Below, one piece after another: positions 3,764-56,082 of a stretch of 56,145 nt of DNA (the stretch's first letter is position 1; the number at the start of each line of letters is the position of its first letter). A program made the translations under genes and the position numbers. A model generated the notes under the pieces. That model was not told the DNA's origin, made no database searches, and saw nothing but the letters and a program-made list of their open reading frames with translations. The stretch comes from a phage, in sequence record PZ386950.1; one strand, written 5' to 3'.

Positions 3764-3803
3764 AGCATAATCGCACGTTTGCAATCCGTCAAGAATTATT
3801 TTA
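3764..3803 (-). promoter_or_regulatory. sigma70-type promoter with UP element (conserved family, copy 1)
   Basis: minus-strand AAAATAATTCTTGACGGATTGCA, 17-bp spacer, TATGCT; identical core recurs 11 times in window. Confidence 0.6.
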
Positions 3804-3874: not shown

Positions 3875-5230
3875 ATGGCTGATCAACAATTCGAACAACT
3901 AGCCGTTGCCGGGTACAGTCGAACAGGCAACCAGGTAAACGACGATTTCCTTCCTAAGCTGAACGGTAAACAAGGCCGTCGTATTCTTCGTCAGATGGCT
4001 GAGAACGACGAAACGATCGGTGGTGTACTGTTTGCCATGAGCAGTGTTTATCGTTCTGTACAGTGGATTTTTGACCCGTCTGACAAAGATGATCCAGAAG
4101 CTATCCGTTATTCAGAATGGTTACAGGACGCTATTGAAAATAAAATGGGTGATCCGCGTGGTGCACTCCCGGATGATACCTGGTCCGCGTTCGTTCAGAC
4201 ATGGACAGACGTTGATGTATTCGGCTGGGGTTGGTATGACATTTGGGTGAAAGACCTTGATGATGGCACGGTGGGTATTGCCCGTCTGGTTCCTGTAGCA
4301 CCTGAAACGCTTGCTGGATGGGATATTGAAGAACCGACAGGTTATGTTCGTGGTATTTATCAACGTTCACCTAACCAGGGTACAACGACGTTAATCACGC
4401 GTGACCGTTCGCTTCATTTGATTTCAAGTCCGAATAAAGGTAACCCGGAAGGTTTATCACTGCTGCGCACAGCTTATCGCCCGTGGTACTACAAAAAAGT
4501 GAATATGGAAATCGAATCCATACTTGCCGAACGTGGTACAGGGTTCCCGGTAATTACTGTTAACGCAGATATTAAAAAAGCGGCTAATGATCCTAATGTT
4601 CCTGAACAACAGCGTCAGGCAGCACAGGCGATGATTGATAACTATGAAAACATCGTCGCTAATATCAAACGCAATGAACAATCAGGACTGGTGATTTATT
4701 CTAAACCGTATATCACGGGTTATGATAACGAAACAGGTGTTACCACGTATGGTGGTGAACAACAGGTGAAACTGGAATTCGTTACACCTAACCAGACCAG
4801 TTCTGTGGATATTGACCGGACGATTAAACGTCTGGATACCAGTATTGCCCGTGCGTTACTGGCAGACTTTTTATTTTTTGGCAGTTCGGGTAATACAAGT
4901 AATGGTGCTAACCTGGGTAATCGTACTGAACTGTGGATCCGCGCAATGCAATCACGTATTGATAGTATTGTAGAATGTGTTAATCGTCAGTTGATACCGC
5001 AGTTATGGTCGTTAAACGCATTTCCTGATGAATACCGCCCGTCGATTCGCGCCGGGTCAATCAGTAAAGACAGTATCGAAACGTTGACTACGGCACTTGC
5101 TCGTTTAGCACAAGCTGGTGCGCCTGTATTCCCGGATCCAGACCTTCAGGAATACGTATATAAAGAGGCGGGTCTACCTATTACGGGGATTGATAAAGCC
5201 GGAGACGGATTACCGTCTATTGACGACTGA
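3875..5230 (+). CDS. portal protein
   Basis: 451-aa ORF directly downstream of terminase region; size, acidic C-terminus and position typical of portal proteins. Confidence 0.8.
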   Translation: MADQQFEQLAVAGYSRTGNQVNDDFLPKLNGKQGRRILRQMAENDETIGGVLFAMSSVYRSVQWIFDPSDKDDPEAIRYSEWLQDAIENKMGDPRGALPDDTWSAFVQTWTDVDVFGWGWYDIWVKDLDDGTVGIARLVPVAPETLAGWDIEEPTGYVRGIYQRSPNQGTTTLITRDRSLHLISSPNKGNPEGLSLLRTAYRPWYYKKVNMEIESILAERGTGFPVITVNADIKKAANDPNVPEQQRQAAQAMIDNYENIVANIKRNEQSGLVIYSKPYITGYDNETGVTTYGGEQQVKLEFVTPNQTSSVDIDRTIKRLDTSIARALLADFLFFGSSGNTSNGANLGNRTELWIRAMQSRIDSIVECVNRQLIPQLWSLNAFPDEYRPSIRAGSISKDSIETLTTALARLAQAGAPVFPDPDLQEYVYKEAGLPITGIDKAGDGLPSIDD

Positions 5231-5233
5231 ATG

Positions 5234-5266
5234 AAAAAGGGACCGTTTCTGGTCCCTTAATTTTTA
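5234..5266. terminator. bidirectional rho-independent terminator
   Basis: stem agggacc-gtttct-ggtccct flanked by aaaaa upstream and taattttt downstream, between convergent genes. Confidence 0.7.
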
Positions 5267-5596
5267 CTTAGTTTCAGGCTGCACGATTGACAGTAATTTA
5301 CTCGCTTCATCAACCGCAGTCTGAATACGAGTCTGTAACGGATAACTGTTGTTGATCGCACGTTCCAGCGTTTTATCAAGCAATTGCAGTTTGACTTCAT
5401 CATCGCCAGTGAACGCGTACATATCAGCAACGACTTCTTTAAACTGTGATGCTTGCTCAACAATAGTCGTGGTTACAATGTATTTCCAGACTTTGTTTAG
5501 CAGTTTAAATTTCACTTCGTTATCAGCAACTGCATCAACCAGAATTTCAGCAGCAGTCTTGTCATATTTAACAAGTTCAAGAATTTCAAAACGCAT
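5264..5596 (-). CDS. hypothetical protein
   Basis: 110-aa ORF in minus-strand block. Confidence 0.5.
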   Translation of the reverse strand: MRFEILELVKYDKTAAEILVDAVADNEVKFKLLNKVWKYIVTTTIVEQASQFKEVVADMYAFTGDDEVKLQLLDKTLERAINNSYPLQTRIQTAVDEASKLLSIVQPETK

Positions 5597-5611
5597 TTAA
5601 GTCTTCTCCTG

Positions 5612-5956
5612 TCAGTTAACATACTTCGCGATTAGTTTATCACAGTCCTCGCGACAGGTAGCATACTTAAACAGGTCACTGGCTGCTTCTGCCCGGTAGT
5701 CAGTATCAATGGTGTAATGTTCATTGACATAGTTATAGGCTGCAAGGTAATTGCTGAACATCCCCGTGGTTACCACTTTCGGTAGTTCCCTTACGACCTT
5801 ACCGTTAAACAGATATGCGATTACCAGAATCAGACCACCGATCACAGGACTTGTGAGAAATGCGATAAAGAACCATGCACCAGGATTACGACCCGTTTGT
5901 TTGGCAACACCCGCGACAACCAGACAGAAAAGAATCCATAAAATAGTGAATAACAT
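5612..5956 (-). CDS. membrane protein
   Basis: 114-aa ORF; strong RBS AAGGAGG 7 nt upstream of ATG; two hydrophobic helices in N-terminal half. Confidence 0.6.
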   Translation of the reverse strand: MLFTILWILFCLVVAGVAKQTGRNPGAWFFIAFLTSPVIGGLILVIAYLFNGKVVRELPKVVTTGMFSNYLAAYNYVNEHYTIDTDYRAEAASDLFKYATCREDCDKLIAKYVN

Positions 5957-5986: not shown

Positions 5987-6027
5987 AGGTTACACGTCCT
6001 TGTGTAATCCGTCAAGAATTATTTTAA
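5987..6027 (-). promoter_or_regulatory. sigma70-type promoter with UP element (copy 2)
   Basis: minus-strand AAAATAATTCTTGACGGATTACA plus 17-bp spacer and TAACCT. Confidence 0.55.
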
Positions 6028-7489: not shown

Positions 7490-7531
7490 ATGTTAGTGTT
7501 ACTGCTTGCAATGTGTCAAGAATTATTTTAA
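7490..7531 (-). promoter_or_regulatory. sigma70-type promoter with UP element (copy 3)
   Basis: minus-strand TAAAATAATTCTTGACACATTGCA then about 17-18 bp and TAACAT-like -10. Confidence 0.55.
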
Positions 7532-11489: not shown

Positions 11490-11530
11490 AAGATATCCTA
11501 CCGTCTGTAATCCGTCAAGAATTATTTTAA
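11490..11530 (-). promoter_or_regulatory. sigma70-type promoter with UP element (copy 4)
   Basis: minus-strand TTAAAATAATTCTTGACGGATTACA plus 17 bp and TATCTT. Confidence 0.6.
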
Positions 11531-11619
11531 AGATACAGTTAATACAGAACGTGTACTAACTGTACATGGTTTTACATAGGTTTCATGATTTTGAGTTGCA
11601 GCTAATACTGAATCTGTAT

Positions 11620-11760
11620 TAGTAGATCATAGATTCATAGATCGCGTCATGTTTATTTTTGACCAACCCATCTCTATCTTATTCTTTTTATTATCTTTTT
11701 ATAGAAAACATAGAAAACATAGATAAATAGAAGAGTAGTATAAGTAGTAAAAGTTGCTGC
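11620..11760. repeat. AT-rich element copy A (about 90 percent identical to 50985-51125)
   Basis: cgtcatgtttatttttgaccaacccatctctatcttattctttttattatctttttatagaaaacatagaaaacatagata matches second copy nearly base for base. Confidence 0.8.
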
Positions 11761-11816: not shown

Positions 11817-11856
11817 TAAAATAATTCTTGACGAATTACACCGACACAACTACTCT
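11817..11856 (+). promoter_or_regulatory. sigma70-type promoter with UP element (copy 5, plus strand)
   Basis: AAAATAATTCTTGACGAATTACA plus 17 bp and TACTCT. Confidence 0.55.
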
Positions 11857-32477: not shown

Positions 32478-32811
32478 GGTTGTTTTCCTGCATCTGTAAG
32501 AACACAATCATTGCGGCACGGAGTGGGTTAGCGTGAATAACACATGAGTCATCCGCATAAATCATTTCTGTCGCATCACCAGTAATTCCATCAATAGCAG
32601 CATTGTCAGGTAAAGCGATCCATGATGAATCTGTTGAAACAATACTAATTTTATTTTCAATAATAATCGGCATTGCATCGTCTGGTTTATTACAATAATC
32701 GACTACTTGATTCACCAGTTTGAGACGATGTTCATGTGATGGTTCACCGTACAATTTACGACTAACCATTGCGTTGATTGAAATATCACTTAAAACACTG
32801 TAATCAGTCAT
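32470..32811 (-). CDS. hypothetical protein
   Basis: 113-aa ORF. Confidence 0.5.
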   Translation of the reverse strand: MTDYSVLSDISINAMVSRKLYGEPSHEHRLKLVNQVVDYCNKPDDAMPIIIENKISIVSTDSSWIALPDNAAIDGITGDATEMIYADDSCVIHANPLRAAMIVFLQMQENNHD

Positions 32812-33340
32812 GACGATTCATTCCCTCTAACATGTCCCAGATAAGCGCAACACGACGCGGATCCGTGCTGATAGTGTGTAAAGTTTCACATCCGTAATGC
32901 CATCCCCAACGAACGGATAATTCAGACAGCAGATAACCACGGGAATTAGCTAGTTCAGCCAGTTCACCAGGTTTGAACGTCGTTGTATTAGGTTCTGTAA
33001 GAACACGAGTACCACAGATAGCGTCACTGATGCGCCACGGTTTCATCAGGTCATCAACCTTGTACCAGTTACTGATACTGATTTCAGACGTTCCCCAGCG
33101 TGCAGCCAGTTTCAGACGTTCCTGACGGGCCGGGAACATTGGCATCTGTGGTAAACGCAGTTGAATCTGTTCTGCAGGTTCGAACATATCGTCGTCTGTT
33201 AAACGGAATTCACCACGGTCATCAATATAAAAACCACGGGAACGACCGTCGCGGGTGAACCCGTCAACACGGTTATAAATTTTACCGGGAGTAAAGACAC
33301 CAATCGGTGAACCAGCTACGAATTTGTGTGAAGTATGCAT
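32804..33340 (-). CDS. hypothetical protein
   Basis: 178-aa ORF downstream of polymerase gene. Confidence 0.5.
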   Translation of the reverse strand: MHTSHKFVAGSPIGVFTPGKIYNRVDGFTRDGRSRGFYIDDRGEFRLTDDDMFEPAEQIQLRLPQMPMFPARQERLKLAARWGTSEISISNWYKVDDLMKPWRISDAICGTRVLTEPNTTTFKPGELAELANSRGYLLSELSVRWGWHYGCETLHTISTDPRRVALIWDMLEGMNRHD

Positions 33341-33379: not shown

Positions 33380-35236
33380 TTACCGAAGTGGTGCAACGAG
33401 TTTTTCAGCTTCTTTGATGTAAAAATCATAATTGAGTGTTGCCCGGTTAAAACGTTTCATGTCGTTACACTCAGTGGTCAACCAACCTTTACACACTGAC
33501 ATGCGGCGTTCAGGCGCATCAGGGTTCAGTTTCAGTGATTTTGCCAGCGGTGGCATGACTTTTGTTAATGGTGCACCATCTGTGCTGACATAATAACGGG
33601 TAATGTTCTGAACCTGTTTGTCACCCCATAGTAATTTGCTATTACGCGGTACTTTCGTCACCAACATAAAATCGTGAATGTCTTCGTGTGATGTTATAAA
33701 ATCACGAATGTCTTTATTGTGTACCAGTGCTGCTTCAGCCGCTTTTGCAACAACCTGCATACTGTGGTTTTGATGCCAACCCAGATCAACACTGTGGCAA
33801 TAAGCACCTTTACGTTTAACCTTCTTACCACCTTCATAAACAGCGATGTAGTTATTTACATCGCGGATAAACATCACGTCATAAATCGCTTCTTCAAGCT
33901 GGAGTCTGGTTAATTTTTCCCACGCGTGACGAACCTGTTCTACTTGTTCGGTAAACACTCGTGGCACGTAAACCGTAAGACCATCTGTGTTAGCCTGGAT
34001 CATGGACAAACCAGGGATTTTCAGAAGTTCTTCAGCCAACATGCACAAAAGTAACTGTCCATTAATCGTAATAGCCATTGTATAAGCAGGATCGTAGAAC
34101 GGGCTGTATACGTTATTACTGTCGCCATACACACCGTTTAACGCCAGTTTTAACATTGCATTTTCTGGTGTACCTTTCGGGTAACTGGAACGCATGTCAT
34201 AAACATTTTTATAAATGGTGCAAAATTGTTTTCCCAAATGTGCAGGGTAAAGTTCATTACTAATCGCAAGGTTTGGATAAAAACTGGCAACGTCCAGATC
34301 GATGATCACATAATTTTCAGTGGACCTGATAGTTTGAGATTCAATAGACCCGTGGATACCACCCGTACCAAAATCAAACGAGAACCCGTTAATGTCTGCG
34401 CTTAAATCAGTAAACACACCTTTTGTTTCAGTGATGACCTGTTGACGTAACCAGTTAAGAACACGATTAAATTCAGGCTGTTCAAAACGAACATAAGGGA
34501 AAATCACACTGTTCAATGCGATTGATGGTCTGTGCGTCTGCCGTGGTTTTCTGCTACCCGGTTCGAAACATTGAATACCTGATTTTTTAAGTTCCATGAT
34601 GAAATAGTCTTTACCGATTTTCGTGTCGTTATGGTTCATGAAATTACGACCGTATTTAGCAGAAAGTTCACGACGAAAATCGATCAGCTTTTTACTGTGT
34701 TTATAAAACATCAAAGTCGCTTTTAAATCGTGTATCAGATATTGACGAAGCGTATCAATTTGAGAATCGGTTAAATAAGTCCCTGGGGTAAACGGAAGGT
34801 CTTCAATGTTTTCCATTCTCATGTTGAACTCAAGTGTTTTCAGACTTGTTCGTTTTGCCTGGTTGTCGAAATGATGAATTTTATACAAATCAAGTTGGGG
34901 AACTATCCAGTCTTTTTCCCACACCATATGAGCAAAACGATTTTCATCACCAGCGTTAATTATCGAATCACCTTTTTTGTAAATGTCTGCGTTGGTGATA
35001 TACATGATGTTGTTCAAAATAGAATGCTGAACAGGATAGTCGTAACCTAGATTGTTATAACCAACTTCTTCAGCACGATGTTCACGCAAATATTCTGTGA
35101 ACAGGTAAAAAGCCTGACGATCGTCGCGACGATGTGAAATCTCAAAAATATAAGGTGTTTCAGTTAATGCGTGAATAGCACCGAACAGGAAAACATTAGG
35201 ATAATTTTCAATATCGTGAATGTAAGCATCTGACAT
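33380..35236 (-). CDS. family B DNA polymerase (compact, with 3'-5' exonuclease motifs)
   Basis: Exo I HDIEN, Exo II YNNLGYDYP, Exo III YLIHD; polymerase motif A DLDVASFYPN, motif B KLALNGVYG, motif C ANTDG. Confidence 0.75.
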   Translation of the reverse strand: MSDAYIHDIENYPNVFLFGAIHALTETPYIFEISHRRDDRQAFYLFTEYLREHRAEEVGYNNLGYDYPVQHSILNNIMYITNADIYKKGDSIINAGDENRFAHMVWEKDWIVPQLDLYKIHHFDNQAKRTSLKTLEFNMRMENIEDLPFTPGTYLTDSQIDTLRQYLIHDLKATLMFYKHSKKLIDFRRELSAKYGRNFMNHNDTKIGKDYFIMELKKSGIQCFEPGSRKPRQTHRPSIALNSVIFPYVRFEQPEFNRVLNWLRQQVITETKGVFTDLSADINGFSFDFGTGGIHGSIESQTIRSTENYVIIDLDVASFYPNLAISNELYPAHLGKQFCTIYKNVYDMRSSYPKGTPENAMLKLALNGVYGDSNNVYSPFYDPAYTMAITINGQLLLCMLAEELLKIPGLSMIQANTDGLTVYVPRVFTEQVEQVRHAWEKLTRLQLEEAIYDVMFIRDVNNYIAVYEGGKKVKRKGAYCHSVDLGWHQNHSMQVVAKAAEAALVHNKDIRDFITSHEDIHDFMLVTKVPRNSKLLWGDKQVQNITRYYVSTDGAPLTKVMPPLAKSLKLNPDAPERRMSVCKGWLTTECNDMKRFNRATLNYDFYIKEAEKLVAPLR

Positions 35237-35316
35237 AATAAAACCCTGATAAATAAATGGGGCACTATGGCCCCATGTCTGTTTAAAGCGGTATGTTGTC
35301 CCAGTTCCAGTAACTA

Positions 35317-36300
35317 TCAGTAACCGTTACCGTTGAGAAAATTCGGGGCCGGGGTGGTCATTACCATATAACCGTTAGCGATCAGTTGTTCATCATTCCA
35401 ACCTTGCGCAATAAACTGTTCGTAAGTAGCACCACCTGCTTTTTCAGTCATTACCTTCACAGGCGTTGCTACAGGTGCTGCCGCTGGTGTAGGCGTTGCT
35501 ACAGGTGCTGCCGCTGCTACAGGCGCTGCTACAGGTGCTGCCGCTGGTGTAGGCGCTGCTACAGGTGCTGCCGCTGGTGTAGGCGCTGCTACAGGTGCTG
35601 CCGCTGGTGTAGGCGCTGCTACAGGTGCTGCCGCTGGTGTAGGCGCTGCTACAGGTGCTGCCGCTGGTGTAGGCGCTGCTACAGGTGCTGCCGCTGGTGT
35701 TACGCCGATCGGACGTGCACCTTCAGGCATTGCAGGAGCAGCACCGAACACAGATGCAGGAGCCGGACCAGAAATAATTTCTTCACCTGCATAAAGCAAT
35801 TGCGCCATTTCCATGTTGATATACACACCGGCCTGGTTACCTGTACGACCGTTTGCAACAGATGATCCGCTGATACGGTAGTAATAACCTTTTTTCGCCA
35901 GATTTTTATCAATAACTGGCTGGTACGCTGCGTTATAAACCGGACACGCGTCAATAGCCACGTTGCGTGAGAAACCAATTACCCAGTGACCAGCATAACC
36001 AGTTTTACTCGCATGTTTCGGATCGTCACCGTTAATAATTTTCCATGCGAAAGTGGGTTGTTGTGGTTCGCCGTTCACATAGTGTGAGTTAGCCGCTCGC
36101 ATGATGGCCTGGAACACCGCACCCAGTTCACCTTGTTCTTCCCACCAGTTCGCCGCTGTTTTAGGAAACGCCAGACCAACCCACCAGTTATGTTTTTCAG
36201 GTGCTAACGGTTTATTTTCGTGGTCATGGGTGTTGATATCGAAAAAAGAACCGCCAACCAGACGACCAACCGGAGTTACAAAAGATTCTTTCTGTGCCAT
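35317..36300 (-). CDS. putative ssDNA-binding protein (DUF2815/gp2.5-like) with P/A-rich repeat linker
   Basis: position between DUF2800 nuclease and polymerase genes; strong RBS AAGAAGG; long PTPAAAPVAA repeats; C-terminal conserved module. Confidence 0.45.
   Translation of the reverse strand: MAQKESFVTPVGRLVGGSFFDINTHDHENKPLAPEKHNWWVGLAFPKTAANWWEEQGELGAVFQAIMRAANSHYVNGEPQQPTFAWKIINGDDPKHASKTGYAGHWVIGFSRNVAIDACPVYNAAYQPVIDKNLAKKGYYYRISGSSVANGRTGNQAGVYINMEMAQLLYAGEEIISGPAPASVFGAAPAMPEGARPIGVTPAAAPVAAPTPAAAPVAAPTPAAAPVAAPTPAAAPVAAPTPAAAPVAAPTPAAAPVAAPVAAAAPVATPTPAAAPVATPVKVMTEKAGGATYEQFIAQGWNDEQLIANGYMVMTTPAPNFLNGNGY
35461..35700 (-). repeat. 30-bp coding tandem repeat (about 8 copies)
   Basis: aggcgYtgctacaggtgctgccgctggtgt repeated nearly perfectly. 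Confidence 0.9.
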
Positions 36301-36315
36301 GTTATTAACCTTCTT

Positions 36316-37461
36316 TTAAAGTGGACGTGCGCCAGTCGGCATCGTCACGGGTTTATTAAAAACAGATTCTGCCAGTGTGCTGTGACCTTTACGCGGGTCA
36401 CTGTCAGGTACTAAAACTGGCTGACCTTCTGGTTTTGTCGTACACATGTCAACAAGTGCCGGAGGCAGTGATTTTTCCAGTGTTGACAATGGTTTTAATT
36501 TACGTTCGTACAATGTTTCAGGGTTTACACCAAACATTGGTGCAGCACCGATCAGTTTTCCTTCGTCCGTAAGCTGACGTCGGGTTTGTTTTGTTGCAAG
36601 TTTAAAACCCGGTAAAGCCTTACCCATGCGAACAAAATGTAACCCCTGAGTATGTAACGCTGTTTTTGCTTCAGAAGAACGCGTATACAGTTCTTCAAGA
36701 AGTGCCAGACGACGCGCTACTTCTTCTGGTGTAAGTGATGGTGGTGCGTCAAGAACAGTAGCCAATTCTAAAACCCTCTCATACATTGCCGGACACATAC
36801 CACGCGCCGGACAGTAATGACAATGACTACCAACATTTAACGGTGCGTCTGGTTTATGTGCTTCGTTAAACCCGTGTTTAAATCGTTCAGCCCATTCCAT
36901 CAATGTTGCCCGGTTAAACTCCCATCGTCTTACAGGTCCGAGTGGGTGATAAGCCCGTGGCTGAACAATTGTGAACACAACGCGCTTAACAGTGTCGATG
37001 CAACGTTGGTCCAGTGCATAATAGACCCCCTGTGAGTTATCAACTGCGTCAACTGCAACATGACCGTATTTATAATCCCATACATAAAGCGTATCAGTAT
37101 TAAAGTCATACCAGCGATAATCACAGGTTCCGTACTGACCGGGTAACAACCAGTCAATGTGAATGCGAACTTCTGAAAACAGCGGATCAAGTTTCGCACC
37201 AACTGAAAGAACATCTGCTATAAAGTCATCCGCGTAAATGTGCATGTCTTCAGTAACCTGAACACCGTTAGGAGCAATACACGGCATTAATGGCGGTTTA
37301 CCTTTAATCTTCTGTTCTAACACCCAGTGCCCGGCTGTACCTTCTTCAGCACTGGGTGATGATGGTTCTACATAATCAATCCGCTGTGACAGTTGAACGC
37401 TACCAGGACAAGCTAACCAACGTTTTGATCCACTGGCACTAAAGGTAGCGTGACTTGTCAT
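36316..37461 (-). CDS. PD-(D/E)xK nuclease, DUF2800 / Cas4-like
   Basis: N-terminal FSASGSKRWLACPG and C-terminal Cys cluster CHYCPARGMCPA. Confidence 0.7.
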   Translation of the reverse strand: MTSHATFSASGSKRWLACPGSVQLSQRIDYVEPSSPSAEEGTAGHWVLEQKIKGKPPLMPCIAPNGVQVTEDMHIYADDFIADVLSVGAKLDPLFSEVRIHIDWLLPGQYGTCDYRWYDFNTDTLYVWDYKYGHVAVDAVDNSQGVYYALDQRCIDTVKRVVFTIVQPRAYHPLGPVRRWEFNRATLMEWAERFKHGFNEAHKPDAPLNVGSHCHYCPARGMCPAMYERVLELATVLDAPPSLTPEEVARRLALLEELYTRSSEAKTALHTQGLHFVRMGKALPGFKLATKQTRRQLTDEGKLIGAAPMFGVNPETLYERKLKPLSTLEKSLPPALVDMCTTKPEGQPVLVPDSDPRKGHSTLAESVFNKPVTMPTGARPL

Positions 37462-38231
37462 CAGAATGTCCCACCCATTTGTTTAACAGATTCAGCCTGA
37501 CCAACAATGTTTTCAGCATCAGCCGGGGCCGCGTTAATGCGTTCAATCAGTTCGATGATAGATTTCAGTTTTACCGGGTCGTCAATCTGCATCACGTTCT
37601 GAGTTTCATACAGCCCCATGATTCGCTGACTTAATGGCGCAGCACGGTCACCCGTAATTTGTCCAAACATCTGCATCAGTGCTGACTGAAGAACCTGTGT
37701 GTTATAAACTTTAGCCGGATCCGTGGTTACAGGTTGCTCGACAGGCGCGACTGGTGCAGCCGGTGCTGCTGGTACAACTGGAGCTACCGGAGCGGCAGGA
37801 ACCGCTGGAGCAGGATCAACAGGTGCTACATAACCCGGTGCAAGTTCTGCAGGTCCGGTATAACGCCCTGCTTCAACTGCTTCAGCGATAAGTTCACGTT
37901 TAACACCGTCAACAAACGCTTCATCCAGTTTTTTCTTCTGACGCCACAGACCGTCACCTTTGTTCAGGGATTTACTGTCAGTGTGGATACGCGGATCATG
38001 ACGCAAACCCCATTTGTCGAACTCTTCAGTGCTGGTTTCGTTATCGTCAACATCTTCAGTTGGTGCAGATACAACAGGCAGTGATTCAGCAACGACAGTT
38101 ACCGTTTCTTTAGTGATACCATCACCCTGAGCAGTCATGAGTGGTGCAGCACCAGTCGCAATAGCATTTGCCAGATTGTTGATCGCAGTTTCCAGACCCG
38201 GAGCAGTTACAAGTAATTTAACTTCGAACAT
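37461..38231 (-). CDS. hypothetical P/A-rich protein, first gene of replication operon
   Basis: 256 aa with PAAPVAPV-type low-complexity linker. Confidence 0.5.
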   Translation of the reverse strand: MFEVKLLVTAPGLETAINNLANAIATGAAPLMTAQGDGITKETVTVVAESLPVVSAPTEDVDDNETSTEEFDKWGLRHDPRIHTDSKSLNKGDGLWRQKKKLDEAFVDGVKRELIAEAVEAGRYTGPAELAPGYVAPVDPAPAVPAAPVAPVVPAAPAAPVAPVEQPVTTDPAKVYNTQVLQSALMQMFGQITGDRAAPLSQRIMGLYETQNVMQIDDPVKLKSIIELIERINAAPADAENIVGQAESVKQMGGTF

Positions 38232-38263: not shown

Positions 38264-38305
38264 ACTTTAAAAGGTGTTGTGTAATCTGTCAAGAATTATT
38301 TTACA
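38264..38305 (-). promoter_or_regulatory. sigma70-type promoter with UP element (copy 6)
   Basis: minus-strand TAAAATAATTCTTGACAGATTACA plus 17 bp and TAAAGT. Confidence 0.6.
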
Positions 38306-38326
38306 CGCGCCTTTCGTTGATGCAGA

Positions 38327-38367
38327 TGTTAGAGGAATAAGTTGCAATGCGTCAAGAACTATTTTAA
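38327..38367 (-). promoter_or_regulatory. sigma70-type promoter with UP element (copy 7, tandem)
   Basis: minus-strand AAAATAGTTCTTGACGCATTGCA, about 60 bp upstream of copy 6. Confidence 0.5.
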
Positions 38368-38401: not shown

Positions 38402-40063
38402 ATGAAAGCTCGTTATTATCAGACTGAAGCTATCAATAACGTATGTCAGGCATGGTCAAGCGGTGCTGACGACGTGATTCTTGTGCTTCCCACGGGGGCA
38501 GGAAAAACGTTCTGTATGTCTGAACTGGTAAAAACAAGAGACGGTGTAAAAGTCATCCAGGCGCACCGTAAAGAACTGGTTAGTCAAATCGCAATGGCTG
38601 TTGCTCGCCAGGGGTTAGCACACAGATTTATAGCGCAAAAAGATACTGTTAAGTTTGCAACTAATCAGCAGATGAAAACGCTTGGTTACAGTACCTATTC
38701 CCCCGGTGCTGACATCGTTATTACCAGTTCACAAACGTTAAGAACAAAACAGTACGAACGATGGTACAACGACGTGTCTCTTGTATTCAGCGACGAAGCG
38801 CATCACCTGGTGCGTGGCACACAGTGGGGAGACTGCCGGGAAAAATTCCCTAACGCTAAAGGTCTGGGTGTTACAGCTACACCGATCCGTGCTGACGGTA
38901 AAGGCTTGGGTCGTCATGCGTCAGGTTACGCAGATCAGATGATCATCGGTCCATCAATGCGTGAGTTAATCAGCCAACAACACCTGGCTGATTATCGCCT
39001 GATCATGGCTGAAACAGACCTGGAATTAACTGCAGAAATGATTTCCCATACTACGGGTGATTACAAACCCTCTGCGTTAAAAAAAGCGATGGAAGATTCA
39101 AACATCGTTGGTGATACCGTCAGTACGTGGAAAACGTATGCAGATGGTTTACTCACCGTTGTGTTTACGTGTGATGTGGATTCTGCTGAAGCACTTGCAA
39201 AAGAATTTCGCGATGCTGGTATTCCTGCAGAGGCGATCAGTTCACGAAACAGTAATCAGGAACGAGCGGATATTCTGGAACGTTTTGAACGACGTAAAAC
39301 ACTCGTGCTATGTAACAACGATTTATTCGGTGAAGGATACGACTGTCCGGCAATGGAATGTGCTGTAATGGACCGTCCAACAGAATCTTACTCTTTGTTT
39401 GTACAACAAATGGGTCGACCATTGCGTTTCAAACCGGGTAAAAAAGCACTGATTATTGATAAAGTCGGTAATGTTCGTCGATTTCTGGCCCGTGGTTTTC
39501 CACTTCCTGATCAGCATTACAACTGGTCTTTAGATGACCGTGACCGTCGTTCATCTAACAGCAGTGGGAACAGTAATACAACATGTACAAACAAGGGTGA
39601 TCCTGATAACGGTATTCCACCGTGTCTGAAGCCTTATCCGTCTGGTCTTCCGTGCTGCCCGTATTGTGGTCATGTTCCTGAAAAAGCCGAACGTTCAGGC
39701 CCGGATCGTGTAGAAGGTAATTTACGTGAACTGACACCTGAAGAACTGGAAGAATTACGCCGGGCAGTTGTGATAATCGACCGTGACCCTGTTGCGGTAA
39801 AAGAACAAATGTTAAACGCTGGTGCACCCCCTGTTGTAGCTTACAGTGCAATGAAAAACATTCAGGCAATGAACGATGCACAGCGTAAGTTACGCAGCAT
39901 GATCACCACATGGGCAGGTATTCAGCGTGATAAAGGTATACCCGTTGATGACGCTTACAAGATGTTTTACAGGGTGTTTGGTGTTGATGTACTTAGTGCA
40001 CAGGGCTTACGTACTCGTGAAGCTAACGAACTCGCCGCAAGGGTTGCAAGTTCATTAATCTGA
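38402..40063 (+). CDS. superfamily II DNA helicase
   Basis: Walker A LPTGAGKT, DEAH box FSDEAHH, helicase C-terminal region. Confidence 0.8.
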   Translation: MKARYYQTEAINNVCQAWSSGADDVILVLPTGAGKTFCMSELVKTRDGVKVIQAHRKELVSQIAMAVARQGLAHRFIAQKDTVKFATNQQMKTLGYSTYSPGADIVITSSQTLRTKQYERWYNDVSLVFSDEAHHLVRGTQWGDCREKFPNAKGLGVTATPIRADGKGLGRHASGYADQMIIGPSMRELISQQHLADYRLIMAETDLELTAEMISHTTGDYKPSALKKAMEDSNIVGDTVSTWKTYADGLLTVVFTCDVDSAEALAKEFRDAGIPAEAISSRNSNQERADILERFERRKTLVLCNNDLFGEGYDCPAMECAVMDRPTESYSLFVQQMGRPLRFKPGKKALIIDKVGNVRRFLARGFPLPDQHYNWSLDDRDRRSSNSSGNSNTTCTNKGDPDNGIPPCLKPYPSGLPCCPYCGHVPEKAERSGPDRVEGNLRELTPEELEELRRAVVIIDRDPVAVKEQMLNAGAPPVVAYSAMKNIQAMNDAQRKLRSMITTWAGIQRDKGIPVDDAYKMFYRVFGVDVLSAQGLRTREANELAARVASSLI

Positions 40064-40104: not shown

Positions 40105-40596
40105 ATGACAACGCTTGAACAATGGGCGATTCGTCACGGTATTAGTCAGATGGCGTTGTACGAGTTATACGCGCTTTATCAGCCTGATGGGACACCACAC
40201 GAAGACGGTGTAAGTGAAAGCGCCACCAGTAAAGAGTGTGAACTGATTGCGGCACGTTCCGGGCAACGTATCTGGCGTAATAACTCAGGTGCTCTGAAAA
40301 ACGAAAAAGGAATGATGGTTCGTTATGGTCTTGGTAACACCAGTGCGAAAATCAACGCTGTTATGAAGTCAAGCGACTACATCGGCATTAAAACCAAAAT
40401 CGTTACACCTGATATGATCGGTTCGAAAGTGGGCGTCTTTATTGCTGCCGAAATGAAACGCCCTGACTGGCACATGATCCCCAGTGATAAACGTGCACAA
40501 GCACAGGCCACTTTCGGTGCGATTGTTGAAAACGCAGGTGGTGAATTTCGTTTCATCACTCATCCTTCACAATTTGAAAAATGGATTAAACAATGA
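40105..40596 (+). CDS. VRR-NUC domain nuclease
   Basis: 163 aa with RNNSGAL and conserved acidic/Lys residues. Confidence 0.65.
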   Translation: MTTLEQWAIRHGISQMALYELYALYQPDGTPHEDGVSESATSKECELIAARSGQRIWRNNSGALKNEKGMMVRYGLGNTSAKINAVMKSSDYIGIKTKIVTPDMIGSKVGVFIAAEMKRPDWHMIPSDKRAQAQATFGAIVENAGGEFRFITHPSQFEKWIKQ

Positions 40597-40871: not shown

Positions 40872-43226
40872 ATGAAAGGGTTACTGAACCGTAAACAGTG
40901 GGTCATGTGGCGGCTTGAGACAGTCGCCGATCGTCCAAAACCAACGAAAGTACCATACAGTCCGGTACACGGTTACAAAGCCAGTACCACTAATCCTAAC
41001 GACTGGTCTGACTATCACACCGCGTTAGGTATGGCGCAAATGTACGGCATGTCTGGTGTTGGTTTTGTATTCACAGAAAACGACCCTTATTTCTTTATTG
41101 ATGTCGATAACTGTCTGGTAGATCAGGCAACAGCTACGTGGTCACCACTGGCGCATGAATTCGTAAACCGTTTTCCAAATGCTTACACTGAAGTCAGTCA
41201 GTCAGGAACAGGTTTGCATATAATCTGTGCTTATACCAGCATACCGGAAGGTTTTAACAGTCTGAACGACCAGAAAACCGGGCTGGAAATGTACTGGCGT
41301 GATCGTTTCGTCGCGATGACGCTCACGGGTAATGGTGATGTTGATATTGATTATACCCAGGGTATTCATGATTCTATTGCCCGGTATGGTCGCATCCGTT
41401 CAGACCGTTCCGCACGCTGGACAACAGCACCCTGTGATGACTGGTCAGGCCCGGCAGACGATGATGAACTGATTAAAATGGCGTTAAATTCGTCCAGTGC
41501 TGCTTCAGTATTTGGTAATAAAGCGTCATTTGCGGATCTGTGGAATGCAAACGTTGAACGCCTGTCTGTGTCATATCCCAGCGACCAGGGAAAAGACTAC
41601 AATGCATCTGCCGCTGATGCTGCCCTGTGCTCACACCTTGCTTTCTGGACCGGGAAAGATTGCGAACGTATTGAACGTCTATTTAACCGTTCCGGGCTGG
41701 TTCGTGGTAAATGGACAGACCGTCAGGATTACCGTGAGAATACGATTCTGGGCGCTGTGGAACGTTGCGATACTGTTTATCGTAGTCAACCGACGCTGAC
41801 ACCAGAACTGATGAAAGCAGTCACACCAGCGCCTACCATCGTTCCTAACGGTGGAACACCTGCGTACATGAGTGTGAAACCCGGTGAAGGTGCATATGGT
41901 TCAAACCACACGGTTAACGCATCCACTTTCGTTAATAACTATTATCCGAACAACACATTGATTTTCGTCCAGCAACAACCATACCGGTTCAACGGTCGCG
42001 TGTGGGAACGTGTCAGTGAAGATGAACTGAAACATCAAATTTCTATGGCAATGCTCGCCAGCGAACCAAAAGCTGACGTGATTAATGGTACGTACAAGGT
42101 TTTGTCGTATTTATTCACACGGGCTGATCGTGAGCTTGGAACATGGCCCGGCGTTGATGTATCACACTATATTGTTTGTCAGAACGGGATACTGGATGTA
42201 CACACGGGTAAATGTGATGCACATAACCCTGATTTCTTTACGACCAGTATTTTACCGTATAGCTACGATCCATTTGCTCGTGCACCAGCGTTTGAACAGT
42301 TTTTAAATACAACTCTGGAAGGTGATCAGGAACGTATTGCATTGTTGCAGGAATGGCTGGGTTACATGCTTGTCAACTCGTATGACTATCAGAAAGCGAT
42401 GCTGTTGATTGGTGCACCACGTTCCGGTAAAGGTACGATTGGTCGCATCATTCAGGCACTGGTAGGTGATGAAGCGTATGCAGGGATCACACTGGAGGGT
42501 TTAGCAAGTGATGCGGTACTTGAAACTGTGCTGGATAAATCTGTGCTATTTATCGGTGATGCTCACAGTGTGTCCGGGCCTGATCGCAACCGAATTCTGG
42601 ACCGTTTCAAATCTATTACAGGTTGTGATGCGATTCCGGTTAATCGTAAATATAAAGGTGCATGGAACGGTCGTTTACCGGGACGTATGACACTGGCTGC
42701 TAACAACATACCTGCATTTGCTGATGATTCCGGTGCAATGGCTAACCGTTTGCTGATCCTACCATTCAACATTTCGTTCCTGGGTCGTGAAGATACCACT
42801 CTGGAAGCACGACTGATGAAAGAACTACCGGGGATCTGTAACTGGGCGATTGAAGGTTTACAACGGTTACGTGCAAACGGACGGTTTACTGAACCAAAAG
42901 CAAGTCTGGAAGAACGTCAGGAAATTATGGATCAACAATCACCACTTAGAAGTTTTATCAGAGATTGTTGCGAATTGGTATCTGATGGTGAGGTGCACAC
43001 TGAAGAACTCTATGGTCGTTATCGTCTCTGGAAAACACAGGAAGGTGGTCCAGCAATGACTAAAACTGCATTTAGTCGGGCGTTTAAATCCACCCTTCGT
43101 GGTAAAGTGAAAAAAGACGTTGTTAATATAAATAACGTTCGACTAAACGGTTTCAGGGGTATTCGTCTTCTCCCTTTTCAGTCAACAGCTAATGTAGTGC
43201 CTTTCCCACCTGCGAGTAACGGTTAG
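40872..43226 (+). CDS. primase-helicase (primase-polymerase N-terminal domain plus P4/D5-type SF3 helicase)
   Basis: N-terminal SQSGTGLHIIC, C-terminal Walker A GAPRSGKGT. Confidence 0.8.
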   Translation: MKGLLNRKQWVMWRLETVADRPKPTKVPYSPVHGYKASTTNPNDWSDYHTALGMAQMYGMSGVGFVFTENDPYFFIDVDNCLVDQATATWSPLAHEFVNRFPNAYTEVSQSGTGLHIICAYTSIPEGFNSLNDQKTGLEMYWRDRFVAMTLTGNGDVDIDYTQGIHDSIARYGRIRSDRSARWTTAPCDDWSGPADDDELIKMALNSSSAASVFGNKASFADLWNANVERLSVSYPSDQGKDYNASAADAALCSHLAFWTGKDCERIERLFNRSGLVRGKWTDRQDYRENTILGAVERCDTVYRSQPTLTPELMKAVTPAPTIVPNGGTPAYMSVKPGEGAYGSNHTVNASTFVNNYYPNNTLIFVQQQPYRFNGRVWERVSEDELKHQISMAMLASEPKADVINGTYKVLSYLFTRADRELGTWPGVDVSHYIVCQNGILDVHTGKCDAHNPDFFTTSILPYSYDPFARAPAFEQFLNTTLEGDQERIALLQEWLGYMLVNSYDYQKAMLLIGAPRSGKGTIGRIIQALVGDEAYAGITLEGLASDAVLETVLDKSVLFIGDAHSVSGPDRNRILDRFKSITGCDAIPVNRKYKGAWNGRLPGRMTLAANNIPAFADDSGAMANRLLILPFNISFLGREDTTLEARLMKELPGICNWAIEGLQRLRANGRFTEPKASLEERQEIMDQQSPLRSFIRDCCELVSDGEVHTEELYGRYRLWKTQEGGPAMTKTAFSRAFKSTLRGKVKKDVVNINNVRLNGFRGIRLLPFQSTANVVPFPPASNG

Positions 43227-43245
43227 TCATTGCACAAGGATGTGT

Positions 43246-43285
43246 AAAATAATTCTTGACGAATTACAGACGTGTGCGCTATAGT
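43246..43285 (+). promoter_or_regulatory. sigma70-type promoter with UP element (copy 8)
   Basis: AAAATAATTCTTGACGAATTACA plus 18 bp and TATAGT. Confidence 0.65.
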
Positions 43286-45473: not shown

Positions 45474-45828
45474 TGCGTATCATATTACTAAAGTGGAAAA
45501 CCGTGAAAGTATCCTGATGAAAGGTATCGTACCAGGGATAAAACTGATCACCAATAATTTAGATGGTCGTCAGGGATTAGGTGTTCCCATCCGTTCCTGT
45601 AGTTATGATAATTTATACGGTTTCCACCCCGTGTTCATTACCTTTAATCCTGTTGAGGCTATATCAATAATGAGTTATCGTGGTTCTGCTGATGAATGGT
45701 GTGTTGCTGTTATAAACGCTACTAATTTACAACATAAACCCGGTCGTTTTTCGTGGGAGTCAATCACTGATTATGTACCTGCTGATTGTATAAAACGTTT
45801 CGAACCCCTGACCAACTTCTTAAAATAA
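45466..45828 (+). CDS. hypothetical protein
   Basis: 120-aa ORF; stop overlaps promoter copy 9. Confidence 0.45.
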   Translation: MVDAYHITKVENRESILMKGIVPGIKLITNNLDGRQGLGVPIRSCSYDNLYGFHPVFITFNPVEAISIMSYRGSADEWCVAVINATNLQHKPGRFSWESITDYVPADCIKRFEPLTNFLK

Positions 45829-45860
45829 TTCTTGACAGATTACCAAACCTCCCCGATAAT
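45822..45860 (+). promoter_or_regulatory. sigma70-type promoter with UP element (copy 9)
   Basis: AAAATAATTCTTGACAGATTACC plus 17 bp and GATAAT. Confidence 0.65.
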
Positions 45861-49966: not shown

Positions 49967-50764
49967 TTATTGACCCATCATATCTTTATACATCATCAAA
50001 ACAATATCATCCGGCATATTGTCTACATCACAATGTGGGTTGTGTGATAACGCATACAGTCTGATTTTCTCCTTCAAATCGCTGACATCGACTACAGGTG
50101 CTTCCACTCGTGTTACAGGTGCTTCCACTCGTGTTACAGGTGGAAGCACTCGTGTTACAGGTGGTTCCACTCGTGCTACAGGTGCTTCCACTCGTGCTAC
50201 AGGTGCTTCACAAACCATCACATTAAACGGTGTACCGGTGCCTTCGTATTTTTCAAGCAAATCGACCATTACGTTTACACATTCCGGGATCCATCCCCGG
50301 CGCAAACCATTCTGAATCCAACTGTCAGTAATTGTGTGTTCGTTTAAATTCCTGCGTAGCACATATCTTGCACATTCAAAATTACCGCACATCGCCTCAA
50401 ACCGTGTCCACACGTCGTGACCGTGAACAGCTTCCAGGATCTGTGAATCAACGTATCTGACACGTTGCCAGTAGTTATTAGCAAAACGCCTGTGTGGTAA
50501 TTTCTGACGCAGTTCGGTAACCGGTATTGTGTGTTTAAGAACAATGTTTTCGTCAGAATGTTGTACTGACGAAGGTGACAGTGTGAAGTCAGTAATCTCT
50601 TCAAGAATAATACTGATCGTTTCATATTTAGGATGAAACCTACCGCTTAACCATTGGTTGTAACGACCAATGGTTACCTTAACACCTCGACGATTAAGGT
50701 ATTCAACAGCATTTTGTACCCCGCCTTTTAAATCTATCAATTCGTCTAAAAGGTTCTTTTTCAT
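49967..50764 (-). CDS. hypothetical protein with EAPVARV tandem repeats
   Basis: ATG 50764 with perfect RBS AAGGAGG; divergent from terS across the iteron region. Confidence 0.55.
   Translation of the reverse strand: MKKNLLDELIDLKGGVQNAVEYLNRRGVKVTIGRYNQWLSGRFHPKYETISIILEEITDFTLSPSSVQHSDENIVLKHTIPVTELRQKLPHRRFANNYWQRVRYVDSQILEAVHGHDVWTRFEAMCGNFECARYVLRRNLNEHTITDSWIQNGLRRGWIPECVNVMVDLLEKYEGTGTPFNVMVCEAPVARVEAPVARVEPPVTRVLPPVTRVEAPVTRVEAPVVDVSDLKEKIRLYALSHNPHCDVDNMPDDIVLMMYKDMMGQ
50092..50212 (-). repeat. 21-bp coding tandem repeat (about 6 copies)
   Basis: acaggtgcttccactcgtgtt repeated with point variants. Confidence 0.85.
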
Positions 50765-50809
50765 TATCACCCCTCCTTATTTGACCACGGATAAATCATA
50801 ACGCGCGTT

Positions 50810-50980
50810 AGCAGCTAGTGCAAGACGTGCTTTATATGTTAGTGTATTTACACTTAGTGCATGTTGTGCTTTAGCAGTTAGTGCAAGATGCACGTTGTGT
50901 ATTAGCTGTTAGTGCACGTTGTGTATCTATGTTGGTACAGCTAATGCACGTTGTGAATTATATAGTGCATGTTGTGCATT
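50810..50980. repeat. iteron array TTAGTGCAYGTTGTG (about 6 copies)
   Basis: ctagtgcaagacgtgc, ttagtgcatgttgtgc, ttagtgcaagatgcacgttgtg, ttagtgcacgttgtg, ctaatgcacgttgtg, tagtgcatgttgtgc. Confidence 0.8.
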
Positions 50981-50984
50981 AAAG

Positions 50985-51125
50985 TTATACTTAACATAGA
51001 TTTCGTCATGTTTACTTTTTAACCAACCCCTCTCTATCTTATTCTTTTTATTATCTTTTTATAGATAACATAGAAAACATAGATATAAATAAGAAGTAGT
51101 ATAGAAAAATAGAGATAGTGCATAT
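50985..51125. repeat. AT-rich element copy B
   Basis: near-identical to 11620-11760; followed by further iteron copies at 51117-51310. Confidence 0.8.
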
Positions 51126-51374
51126 AGTGTATTAGCTGTAAATAGAGCTAAAATAAAAGTCTGGGAGATACCTATTGTAATCTATGTTTTTATGCAAGTC
51201 TTTGAAATTATTGTGATTATTGGATACGTATTTATGTATGTGATCGAAAATTAGTGCATGTTGTGCACTAACTGTAAACTTAATACTAACGTTGTATTAG
51301 CTGTAAAACAGGGCGTGTGGACAACCCGTGGGTATCTGTGGGAAACTAATTTAAAATTTATGGGAGACAAATTT

Positions 51375-54408: not shown

Positions 54409-54450
54409 AGTCTATCTGATAATGTGTAAACCGTCAAGAATTATTTTAAA
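54409..54450 (-). promoter_or_regulatory. sigma70-type promoter with UP element (copy 10)
   Basis: minus-strand TTAAAATAATTCTTGACGGTTTACA. Confidence 0.5.
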
Positions 54451-56040: not shown

Positions 56041-56082
56041 ACTATACAGATACATGAGTAATCTGTCAAGAATTATTTTAAA
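56041..56082 (-). promoter_or_regulatory. sigma70-type promoter with UP element (copy 11)
   Basis: minus-strand TTAAAATAATTCTTGACAGATTACT plus 17 bp and TATAGT. Confidence 0.65.

Follow-up and report, generated by a model that had tools for sequence, protein, structure and literature searches.

A compact family-B DNA polymerase of a Sasha/9NA-type siphophage, probably a primer-dependent replicase of the crAss-like group

The stretch of phage DNA analysed here (sequence record PZ386950.1; 56,145 nucleotides, hereafter the window) encodes at 33380-35236, on its minus strand, a family-B DNA polymerase (PolB) that we take, with a probability of roughly 85%, to be the primer-dependent, proofreading replicase of a virulent, headful-packaging siphophage of the Sasha/9NA type and a member of the crAss-like PolB group. 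Sequence conservation supports a catalytically intact and unusually compact enzyme, while homology to the primer-dependent PolB domain of GP55 from Lactococcus phage 1706 and a near-constant partnership with an AEP primase-helicase together strongly favour dependence on the primase. Neither the gene nor its family nor its evolutionary behaviour is new: the gene is annotated in near-identical GenBank phages, the group has been classified (Kazlauskas et al., 2020) and its swapping has been described (Yutin et al., 2024), and for interpretation of the genome the gene matters little. Because Pfam and NCBIfam models miss this abundant group of phage PolBs, its members are routinely left as ‘hypothetical protein’. 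Being a single chain of 618 aa with proofreading, and coming from E. coli/Salmonella phages that grow easily, the enzyme would offer a convenient model and possibly a reagent.

Catalytic motifs and fold of the polymerase

Translation of 33380-35236 (-) gives one uninterrupted open reading frame (ORF) of 618 aa from ATG to stop, in agreement with a preliminary description of this DNA, which did not give the strand. The predicted protein has a 3'-5' exonuclease domain (approximately residues 1-180), a palm, short fingers and a thumb. We aligned it with 49 representatives that are 41-54% identical, taken from an exhaustive representative search, and conservation is stated below for these 50 sequences (alignment A1). 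D66, D315, Y320, K363, G371 and N416-T417-D418-G419 are invariant, and D8, E10, Y166 and D170 are conserved in at least 90% of the sequences. On the minus strand, Exo I (D8-I-E10; 35207..35215) has both acidic residues nearly invariant, Exo II (N61-N-L-G-Y-D66; 35039..35056) combines the invariant D66 with a nearly invariant N61 and N62, and Exo III (Y166-L-I-H-D170; 34727..34741) is of the DEDDy type. Motif A (D313-L-D315-V-A-S-F-Y320-P-N; 34271..34300), located by the alignment and by regular-expression positions, would supply the catalytic Asp D315 and the steric-gate Tyr Y320; its core, D313-x-D315-xxS318-x-Y320-P321, is invariant or nearly so and is aligned by HMMER with ‘LDFRSLYPS’ of the archaeal 9N/Tgo polymerases. 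The fingers motif B, predicted to bind dNTPs (K363-LALN-G-V-Y-G371; 34124..34150), follows 48 aa past motif A with the pattern K363-xxx-N367-xx-Y-G371 invariant or nearly so.

Two motifs depart from the family-B consensus. Motif C (N416-T-D418-G; 33980..33991), in the context Q-A-N416-T-D418-G, has Asn for the first Asp of DTD in 50/50 sequences and retains the catalytic second Asp. The equivalent of KxY, N461-N-Y463 (33848..33856), keeps the Tyr and has lost the Lys; N461 and Y463 are invariant, and the segment aligns with KKKY of archaeal PolBs, at which position crAss002 has VNSY. Both peculiarities, NTDG in motif C and NxY instead of KxY, are common to the PolBs of the window, 9NA, JenP1, cr55_1 and crAss002. 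The preliminary description had listed Exo I to III and motifs A, B and C; all of them stand in canonical family-B order and are conserved, but motif C is of the noncanonical NTDG form.

Several residues that are invariant in the family lack an assignable counterpart in classical PolBs, namely G292-G293-x-H295 (‘GGIHGS’), which lies 20 residues ahead of motif A, and R188, R349, W439, K474 and R547. D382 (‘FYDP’) is likewise invariant and aligns with ‘FFDP’ of E. coli Pol II. Either H295 or D382 might make up for the lost first Asp of motif C. A ‘QLDLY’ segment at residues 114-118 was considered as a beta-clamp-binding motif and rejected, being a nearly invariant buried strand of the exonuclease domain.

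Scans with Pfam and NCBIfam returned no model for the window polymerase at E<=0.01, and among the 50 family members Pfam matches are weak (DNA_pol_B_exo2 in 19, DNA_pol_B in four, DNA_pol_B_2 in none). The gene nonetheless stands far above chance expectation: it matches phrog_1252 ‘DNA polymerase’ (E 1e-215), tblastn matches to its product occur in 969 phage records, and a library of 1.84 billion proteins holds 4,872 matching clusters at 50% identity (E<=1e-3). Against PDB sequences, phmmer found weak matches to archaeal B3 polymerases and E. coli Pol II over motifs A to C and the start of the thumb; with the family profile these improve to 3e-7 and Pol alpha and RB69 are added, phi29 polymerase never appearing. 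An AlphaFold2 model built on the 50-sequence alignment (pLDDT 95.6, pTM 0.91) retrieved with Foldseek a top 50 of PDB entries that are all family B (9N, KOD, Tgo, Pol alpha, ASFV and Pol II; E 2.5e-15 to 4e-13), with 340-460 of the 618 residues superposing on solved PolBs, and in BFVD, models of PolBs from crAss-like and other phages reach TM scores of 0.66-0.93 when superposed on it. By its predicted fold, the window protein is a divergent family-B polymerase.

The missing Pfam and NCBIfam models and the off-consensus motif C and KxY would accord with a PolB homologue that has decayed and lost catalysis, or with a family-A enzyme mistaken for family B. We regard family A as refuted and degeneracy as very improbable: all or nearly all of the 50 diverged sequences retain the residues known to be required for metal and dNTP binding (D315, D418, K363 and Y320) and the five DEDDy residues, PolB-type motifs A, B and C follow in canonical order, and the predicted model matches PolBs in every domain, from the exonuclease to the palm, fingers and thumb, but PolA in the exonuclease domain only. 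Moreover, the first Asp of motif C is dispensable in the primer-independent polymerases termed piPolBs (PMC5695915). The palm, fingers and thumb of family A and its motifs (DYSQIELR, RxxxKxxxFxxxYG and HDE) were not found in the window polymerase. The preliminary description had named a different family or a degenerate domain as the outcome that would overturn it; what we found instead were a PolB fold, PolB motifs and conserved catalytic residues.

Compactness, group placement and genome form

Motif spacings were taken from regular-expression positions on the sequences of four enzymes. Motifs A and B are 48 aa apart and motifs B and C 53 aa apart in the window PolB, compared with 134 and 73 aa in phi29 polymerase, 74 and 52 aa in E. 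coli Pol II (which is without TPR2) and 149 and 61 aa in T4 gp43, so that the window enzyme has the shortest motif A-to-B distance of the four and neither TPR1 nor TPR2 can be present. In the predicted model the fingers consist of just two short helices (337-350 and 357-374). The ORF begins only seven residues ahead of Exo I, at residue 8, indicating that the window enzyme lacks the domain that Pol II, T4 and archaeal PolBs have in front of the exonuclease; Exo I is found at residue 112 in the T4 polymerase and at residue 156 in Pol II. The compactness of the window PolB is thus attributable to the missing N-terminal domain and the short two-helix fingers. It differs from the classical enzymes (Tgo/KOD/9N, Pol II, Pol alpha/epsilon/delta and RB69/T4 gp43) in the absence of this domain, in its shorter fingers (48 vs 74-149 aa between motifs A and B) and in having NTDG and NNY rather than DTDS and KxY.

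Placement among the family-B groups was based on profile scores, profile-profile comparisons and fold searches. The family profile scores 387 bits against the PolB of crAss-like phage cr55_1, end to end (hmm positions 3-609), 326 bits against that of JenP1 (Nonagvirus) and 263 bits against that of crAss002 (hhalign 100%, E 2e-50, 600 columns), falling to 65 bits for the PolB domain of GP55 from Lactococcus phage 1706 (hhalign 99%, E 5e-18, 454 columns), 25 bits for T4 gp43, 18 bits for E. coli Pol II (hhalign 85%, E 6e-6, over the palm) and -0.1 bits for phi29 polymerase (hhalign 1.5%). PolBs have been split into a nucleic-acid-primed cluster, ‘PolBmain’, and a ‘pPolB+piPolB’ cluster (Kazlauskas et al., 2020, NAR 48:10142; PMC7544198), and in the part of Table S2 of that study available to us the 633-aa polymerase of 9NA and the 1317-aa protein of phage 1706 stand under PolBmain. 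The crAss-like group is described there as a divergent member of the EpsilonN-like clade of PolBmain with divergent motif C and KxY (PMC7544198), and the window PolB has both of these peculiarities, NTDG for DTDS and N461-N-Y463 where archaeal enzymes have KKKY. By profile comparison, the window PolB is therefore probably a member of the crAss-like phage PolB group, a divergent branch of the nucleic-acid-primed PolBs. With the group (Crassvirales, Nonagvirus/JenP1 and Nonanavirus/9NA) it shares full-length homology, NTDG, NxY, an N-terminal exonuclease and a compact layout. There is no difference of substance apart from approximately 135 extra residues of insertions in the crAss002 PolB and the choice of primase partner, as Crassvirales pair their PolB with a DnaG-family primase and a DnaB helicase whereas the window phage has an AEP primase-SF3 helicase.

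Split or interrupted PolB genes were noted in Flavobacterium phage FpV21 (KT876726), Klebsiella phage KLPPOU148 (NC_071128), Rheinheimera Barba phages and Cellulophaga phage phi14:2. The tblastn matches are in two parts, which in FpV21 and KLPPOU148 are separated by a ‘hypothetical protein’, and BFVD lists the phi14:2 PolB as two entries, of 316 and 252 aa. Such a pattern fits the introns and inteins that have been described in PolB genes of the crAss-like type.

The window polymerase is 99.5% identical to the annotated DNA polymerase of Escherichia phage vB_EcoS_AVIO78A, 98.5% to that of Salmonella phages Sasha, Sergei and Solent and 57% to that of 9NA, and the 18 kb around it reach a DNA identity of up to 97% to Escherichia phage PDP46 and approximately 95% to Sashavirus genomes, identities from which the window can be recognized as a complete Sashavirus/Nonanavirus genome. 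Its end-to-start junction is collinear with AVIO78A 4520-5930, that is, with the interior of the relative's genome, and the ends have zero terminal identity. The window is a circularly permuted genome that was opened artificially at the terL start codon, as the collinear junction indicates. The genome carries terminase genes, terS and terL both being present also in AVIO78A, the closest relative, and for 9NA a circular assembly and a pac fragment, equated with headful packaging, were reported by Casjens et al. (PMC4153490). Sashavirus, Nonanavirus and Gorganvirus have been grouped as PolB-encoding ‘Clade 3’ phages, with one in-situ PolB-to-PolA swap in related Vibrio phages (Yutin et al., 2024; PMC11348598).

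These features bear on the possibility that the enzyme is a protein-primed PolB of the phi29/PRD1 type, which would use a terminal protein to begin synthesis at the ends of a linear genome. Phi29 polymerase is of similar length, also lacks an N-terminal domain and has its exonuclease motifs at near-identical positions, and the preliminary description had seen kinship with phi29-type or primer-independent PolBs on the basis of size only; motif spacing, profiles and published clustering all oppose this. The intervals of 48 (vs 134) and 53 (vs 73) aa leave no space for the TPR1 and TPR2 insertions that the preliminary description proposed looking for. Profile similarity to phi29 polymerase is limited to Exo II, which hhalign pairs with phi29 NLKFD, and DNA_pol_B_2, the Pfam model for protein-primed PolBs, is matched by 0/50 family members. 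The gene upstream of the polymerase encodes a single-stranded DNA-binding protein (SSB) and not a terminal protein; with respect to the terminal protein suggested earlier as a further check, the polymerase is flanked by the genes for the SSB and a 178-aa protein, terminal proteins being too diverse for a homology search to be decisive. The inverted terminal repeats proposed alongside it were also absent, a repeat search of the window finding no inverted repeats that touch its ends, and the collinear junction and the terS/terL genes fit the same picture. Finally, the 9NA orthologue lies outside the pPolB+piPolB cluster in the part of the published classification available to us (PMC7544198). 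We consider the protein-primed reading effectively refuted.

Proposed source of primers

The closest characterized relative of the window PolB, judged by sequence, is the PolB domain of GP55 from Lactococcus phage 1706 (HelPrimPolB), which joins an SF3 helicase, a PriS-like AEP primase and a PolB in one chain (Zhang et al., 2025, NAR 53:gkaf542; PMC12205980). GP55 has primer-extension and proofreading activity. Supplied with dNTPs only, it yields no detectable product; its PolB domain elongates RNA primers, for which GP55 is dependent on the AEP domain (PMC12205980). As in the window enzyme, the GP55 domain starts with the exonuclease, has no TPR1 or TPR2 and has lost the first Asp of motif C (KTDS), and both phages encode the same three activities, SF3 helicase, AEP primase and PolB. 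They differ in that the window PolB is a separate protein and its primase-helicase lies on the other strand, has its domains in reverse order (primase at the N terminus, helicase at the C terminus) and includes an NrS-1-type helix-bundle domain, without a counterpart in GP55. The motif A-B spacing is also greater in GP55 (73 vs 48 aa). The comparison suggests that helicase, AEP primase and compact PolB may form a recurrent minimal replisome, fused or split.

We counted partner genes in 28 related virome loci whose sequence extends 7.5 kb or more upstream, and found a primase-helicase homologue on that side of the PolB in 26 of them, divergently transcribed where layouts were tabulated. The homologues are of three types: NrS-1-like AEP with D5_N and SF3, as in the window; Prim-Pol with PriCT_2 and DUF3987; and a type in which Pfam recognizes the DUF5906 SF3 helicase core alone, so that an AEP primase domain is recognizable in two of the three. 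A tblastn search with the window replication proteins had found the window-type primase-helicase in only two of the 14 full-flank loci; absence of a primase from most loci was considered and rejected, as Pfam scans and further tblastn searches revealed the two other types in the same position. The replication module is a mosaic around a constant polymerase slot. Similarly, Leuconostoc phage phiLNTR2 (28 kb) has helicase, prim-pol and PolB genes in a row, and crAss-like phages with a homologous PolB retain a DnaG-family primase. A self-priming polymerase would not need so constant a primase companion, which argues for a primer-dependent proofreading replicase. In these virome loci (L013-L091, e.g. 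L042:3924-6416 and L013:3331-5940), where the PolBs are 50-57% identical to that of the window and the three partner types occur, a DUF2800 nuclease was also detected upstream in 10 of the 14 full-flank loci.

De novo chain initiation in the manner of the primer-independent piPolBs of pipolins (Redrejo-Rodriguez et al., 2017), which would make the primase domain redundant, was compared on TPR spacing, motifs and published clustering. Like the window PolB, piPolBs have lost the first Asp of motif C (xTDG; SxTTDG vs NTDG) and have a noncanonical KxY, replaced in the window enzyme by NNY and followed by an invariant basic K474-R-K-G477, and the piPolB KxY/KTRG region is likewise altered (PMC5695915). 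However, TPR1 and TPR2, present in all piPolBs (PMC5695915), are absent from the window PolB by motif spacing, as is KH-X8-KTRG: there is no KH dipeptide, and ‘KRKG’ aligns with ‘TTRG’ of ordinary primer-dependent archaeal PolBs. GP55 also lacks the first Asp, yet is inactive on dNTPs alone and dependent on AEP. The near-constant primase-helicase-type gene (26/28 loci, phiLNTR2 and the window), with DnaG in crAss phages, argues in the same direction, and the gene is found in a lytic phage and not, as piPolBs are, in an integrative element of the pipolin kind. Primer independence is accordingly improbable in our estimation. A somewhat less remote, though still doubtful, idea drawn from the sequence motifs is that NxY, NTDG, H295 (GGxH) and K474 might adapt the PolB to an unusual form of initiation, either from very short DNA primers that the AEP prim-pol would start with dNTPs, in an entirely RNA-free, clamp-free replisome, which is conceivable because the primase is akin to NrS-1, or, less likely, by piPolB-like de novo synthesis.

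The primer-dependent replicase that we favour would work as follows. The AEP primase-SF3 helicase would open the duplex and lay short primers, which the PolB would elongate and proofread with its DEDDy exonuclease while a gp2.5/Enc34-like SSB coats the displaced strand. Going by the roles of their families, the DUF2800 nuclease, the annealing SSB, the SF2 helicase and an endonuclease may serve recombination-dependent replication and the processing of concatemers for pac/headful packaging. We infer catalytic activity, primer dependence and the partner roles from the comparisons above, the first two because the literature searched holds no characterized stand-alone crAss-like PolB. This lack of biochemistry or structure in the literature searched weighs against the proposal, as do several further points: no clamp or other processivity factor was identified, nor a PIP or clamp motif in the polymerase; GP55 is distant (approximately 22% identity), and its properties transfer only with caution; NTDG and the altered KxY recall primer-independent PolBs (TTDG); and the label ‘crAss-like’ for the 9NA-type PolB rests on profile comparisons, the label in the available part of Table S2 being PolBmain.

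Replication neighbourhood and repeat elements

The preliminary description had placed the polymerase beside a DUF2800 nuclease, an SSB, an SF2 helicase and a P4-type primase-helicase, and Pfam, NCBIfam and PHROG matches bear out all four. The DUF2800/PD-(D/E)XK (Cas4-like) exonuclease is encoded at 36316..37461 (-; PF10926 E 6.5e-58, PF12705 E 7e-7, phrog_69) and the Enc34/gp2.5-like ssDNA-binding and annealing protein at 35317..36300 (-; PF10991 E 9e-6, phrog_7011 E 2e-99). On the plus strand are genes for an SF2 (ResIII/SNF2-like) helicase at 38402..40063 (PF04851 E 1.6e-22, PF00271 (Helicase_C) E 1e-10, phrog_16), a 163-aa endonuclease at 40105..40596 (phrog_93 ‘endonuclease’, E 6e-22) and the 784-aa primase-helicase at 40872..43226, which combines an AEP prim-pol, an NrS-1-type helix bundle, D5_N and a P4-type SF3 domain (PF22763 E 8.5e-22, PF08706, PF19263, TIGR01613 E 5e-55, phrog_1829 E 2e-229). 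Its PDB matches include the 7OLA primase (E 2e-34) and the NrS-1 primase (e.g. 6A9W; E ~1e-30), and its AEP domain has DxD, GTGLH and RF motifs intact and aligned with the PDB primases.

This setting bears on a further alternative, in which the enzyme would be an accessory repair or translesion polymerase resembling E. coli Pol II, with bulk replication performed by host Pol III. Pol II is indeed among the best cellular sequence matches (hhalign 85%, E 6e-6), and the PolB groups without the first Asp of motif C include translesion enzymes (B2 group). However, the polymerase lies at the core of a full phage replisome module (SSB, nuclease, two helicases and primase), it is the sole polymerase gene annotated in the genome of the closest relative, its proofreading exonuclease is intact in the 50-sequence alignment, and related phages swap the same slot in situ for a replicative PolA (PMC11348598). 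An accessory role thus seems unlikely to us.

Two further genes, both for conserved proteins, flank the nuclease-SSB-polymerase block. A 256-aa protein of unassigned function (37461..38231, -; phrog_27827 E 1e-163) is encoded by the first gene of the leftward replication operon and had no match in a Pfam scan; its identification as a Sak4/AAA_24-type ATPase, as found in classical DUF2800 modules, was rejected, as it has no P-loop and contains a low-complexity Ala/Pro linker. Directly downstream of the polymerase, a conserved 178-aa protein (32804..33340, -; phrog_19205 E 4e-109) is likewise without an assigned function. By synteny with 9NA, the 178-aa and 256-aa proteins occupy the positions of gp64 and gp68, respectively. 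Because no clamp or processivity factor is recognizable, both are candidate polymerase accessory factors.

In the SSB, a (PAAAPVAAPT)n Ala/Pro linker, specified by tandem 30-nt repeats at 35401-35760 (-), joins the OB-fold core to the C-terminal tail. This tail is not acidic, in contrast to that of T7 gp2.5; the homologous AVIO78A gene is of a different length. Between the SSB and polymerase genes, a consensus scan located a terminator-like G+C-rich hairpin with a T-run (35257..35276, -), where a terminator is also annotated in AVIO78A, suggesting partial termination (possibly attenuation) and expression of the polymerase below the level of the SSB.

Directed into the operon, in which the polymerase gene comes last, are promoter-like elements at 38264..38366 (-), TTGACA-17-TAAAGT and TTGACG-18-TAACAT, in a region that holds two copies (38281-38303 and 38344-38366) of a promoter-like motif. 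This 23-nt motif, TAAAATAATTCTTGACGGATTAC, consists of an A/T-rich UP-like element joined to a -35 TTGAC and occurs in 11 copies with up to three mismatches, against 0 expected by chance. The copies point in either direction and are all intergenic; besides these two, they lie at 3781-3803, 6004-6026, 7508-7530, 11507-11529, 11817-11839, 43245-43267, 45821-45843, 54426-54448 and 56058-56080. From its sequence and distribution it is probably a standard early/middle promoter of the phage.

Upstream of the terS region, at 50790-51300, at least five direct copies of TTAGTGCAYGTTGTG (50854, 50909, 50941, 50962 and 51251) flank an A/T-rich block of 79 nt (51016-51094). The block recurs with 92% identity at 11656-11734, where it adjoins an inverted TTAGTGCAYGTTGTG copy at 11545-11559 (region 11545-11734). 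In its layout of iterons and A/T-rich DNA the region resembles either a replication origin, for which the ori/crr of P4, bound by the P4 primase-helicase, provides a comparison case, or a region recognized by TerS (pac). A further set of 21-nt tandem repeats, TACAGGTGCTTCCACTCGTGT, is located at 50072-50226 within a 267-aa ORF (49967-50770, -).

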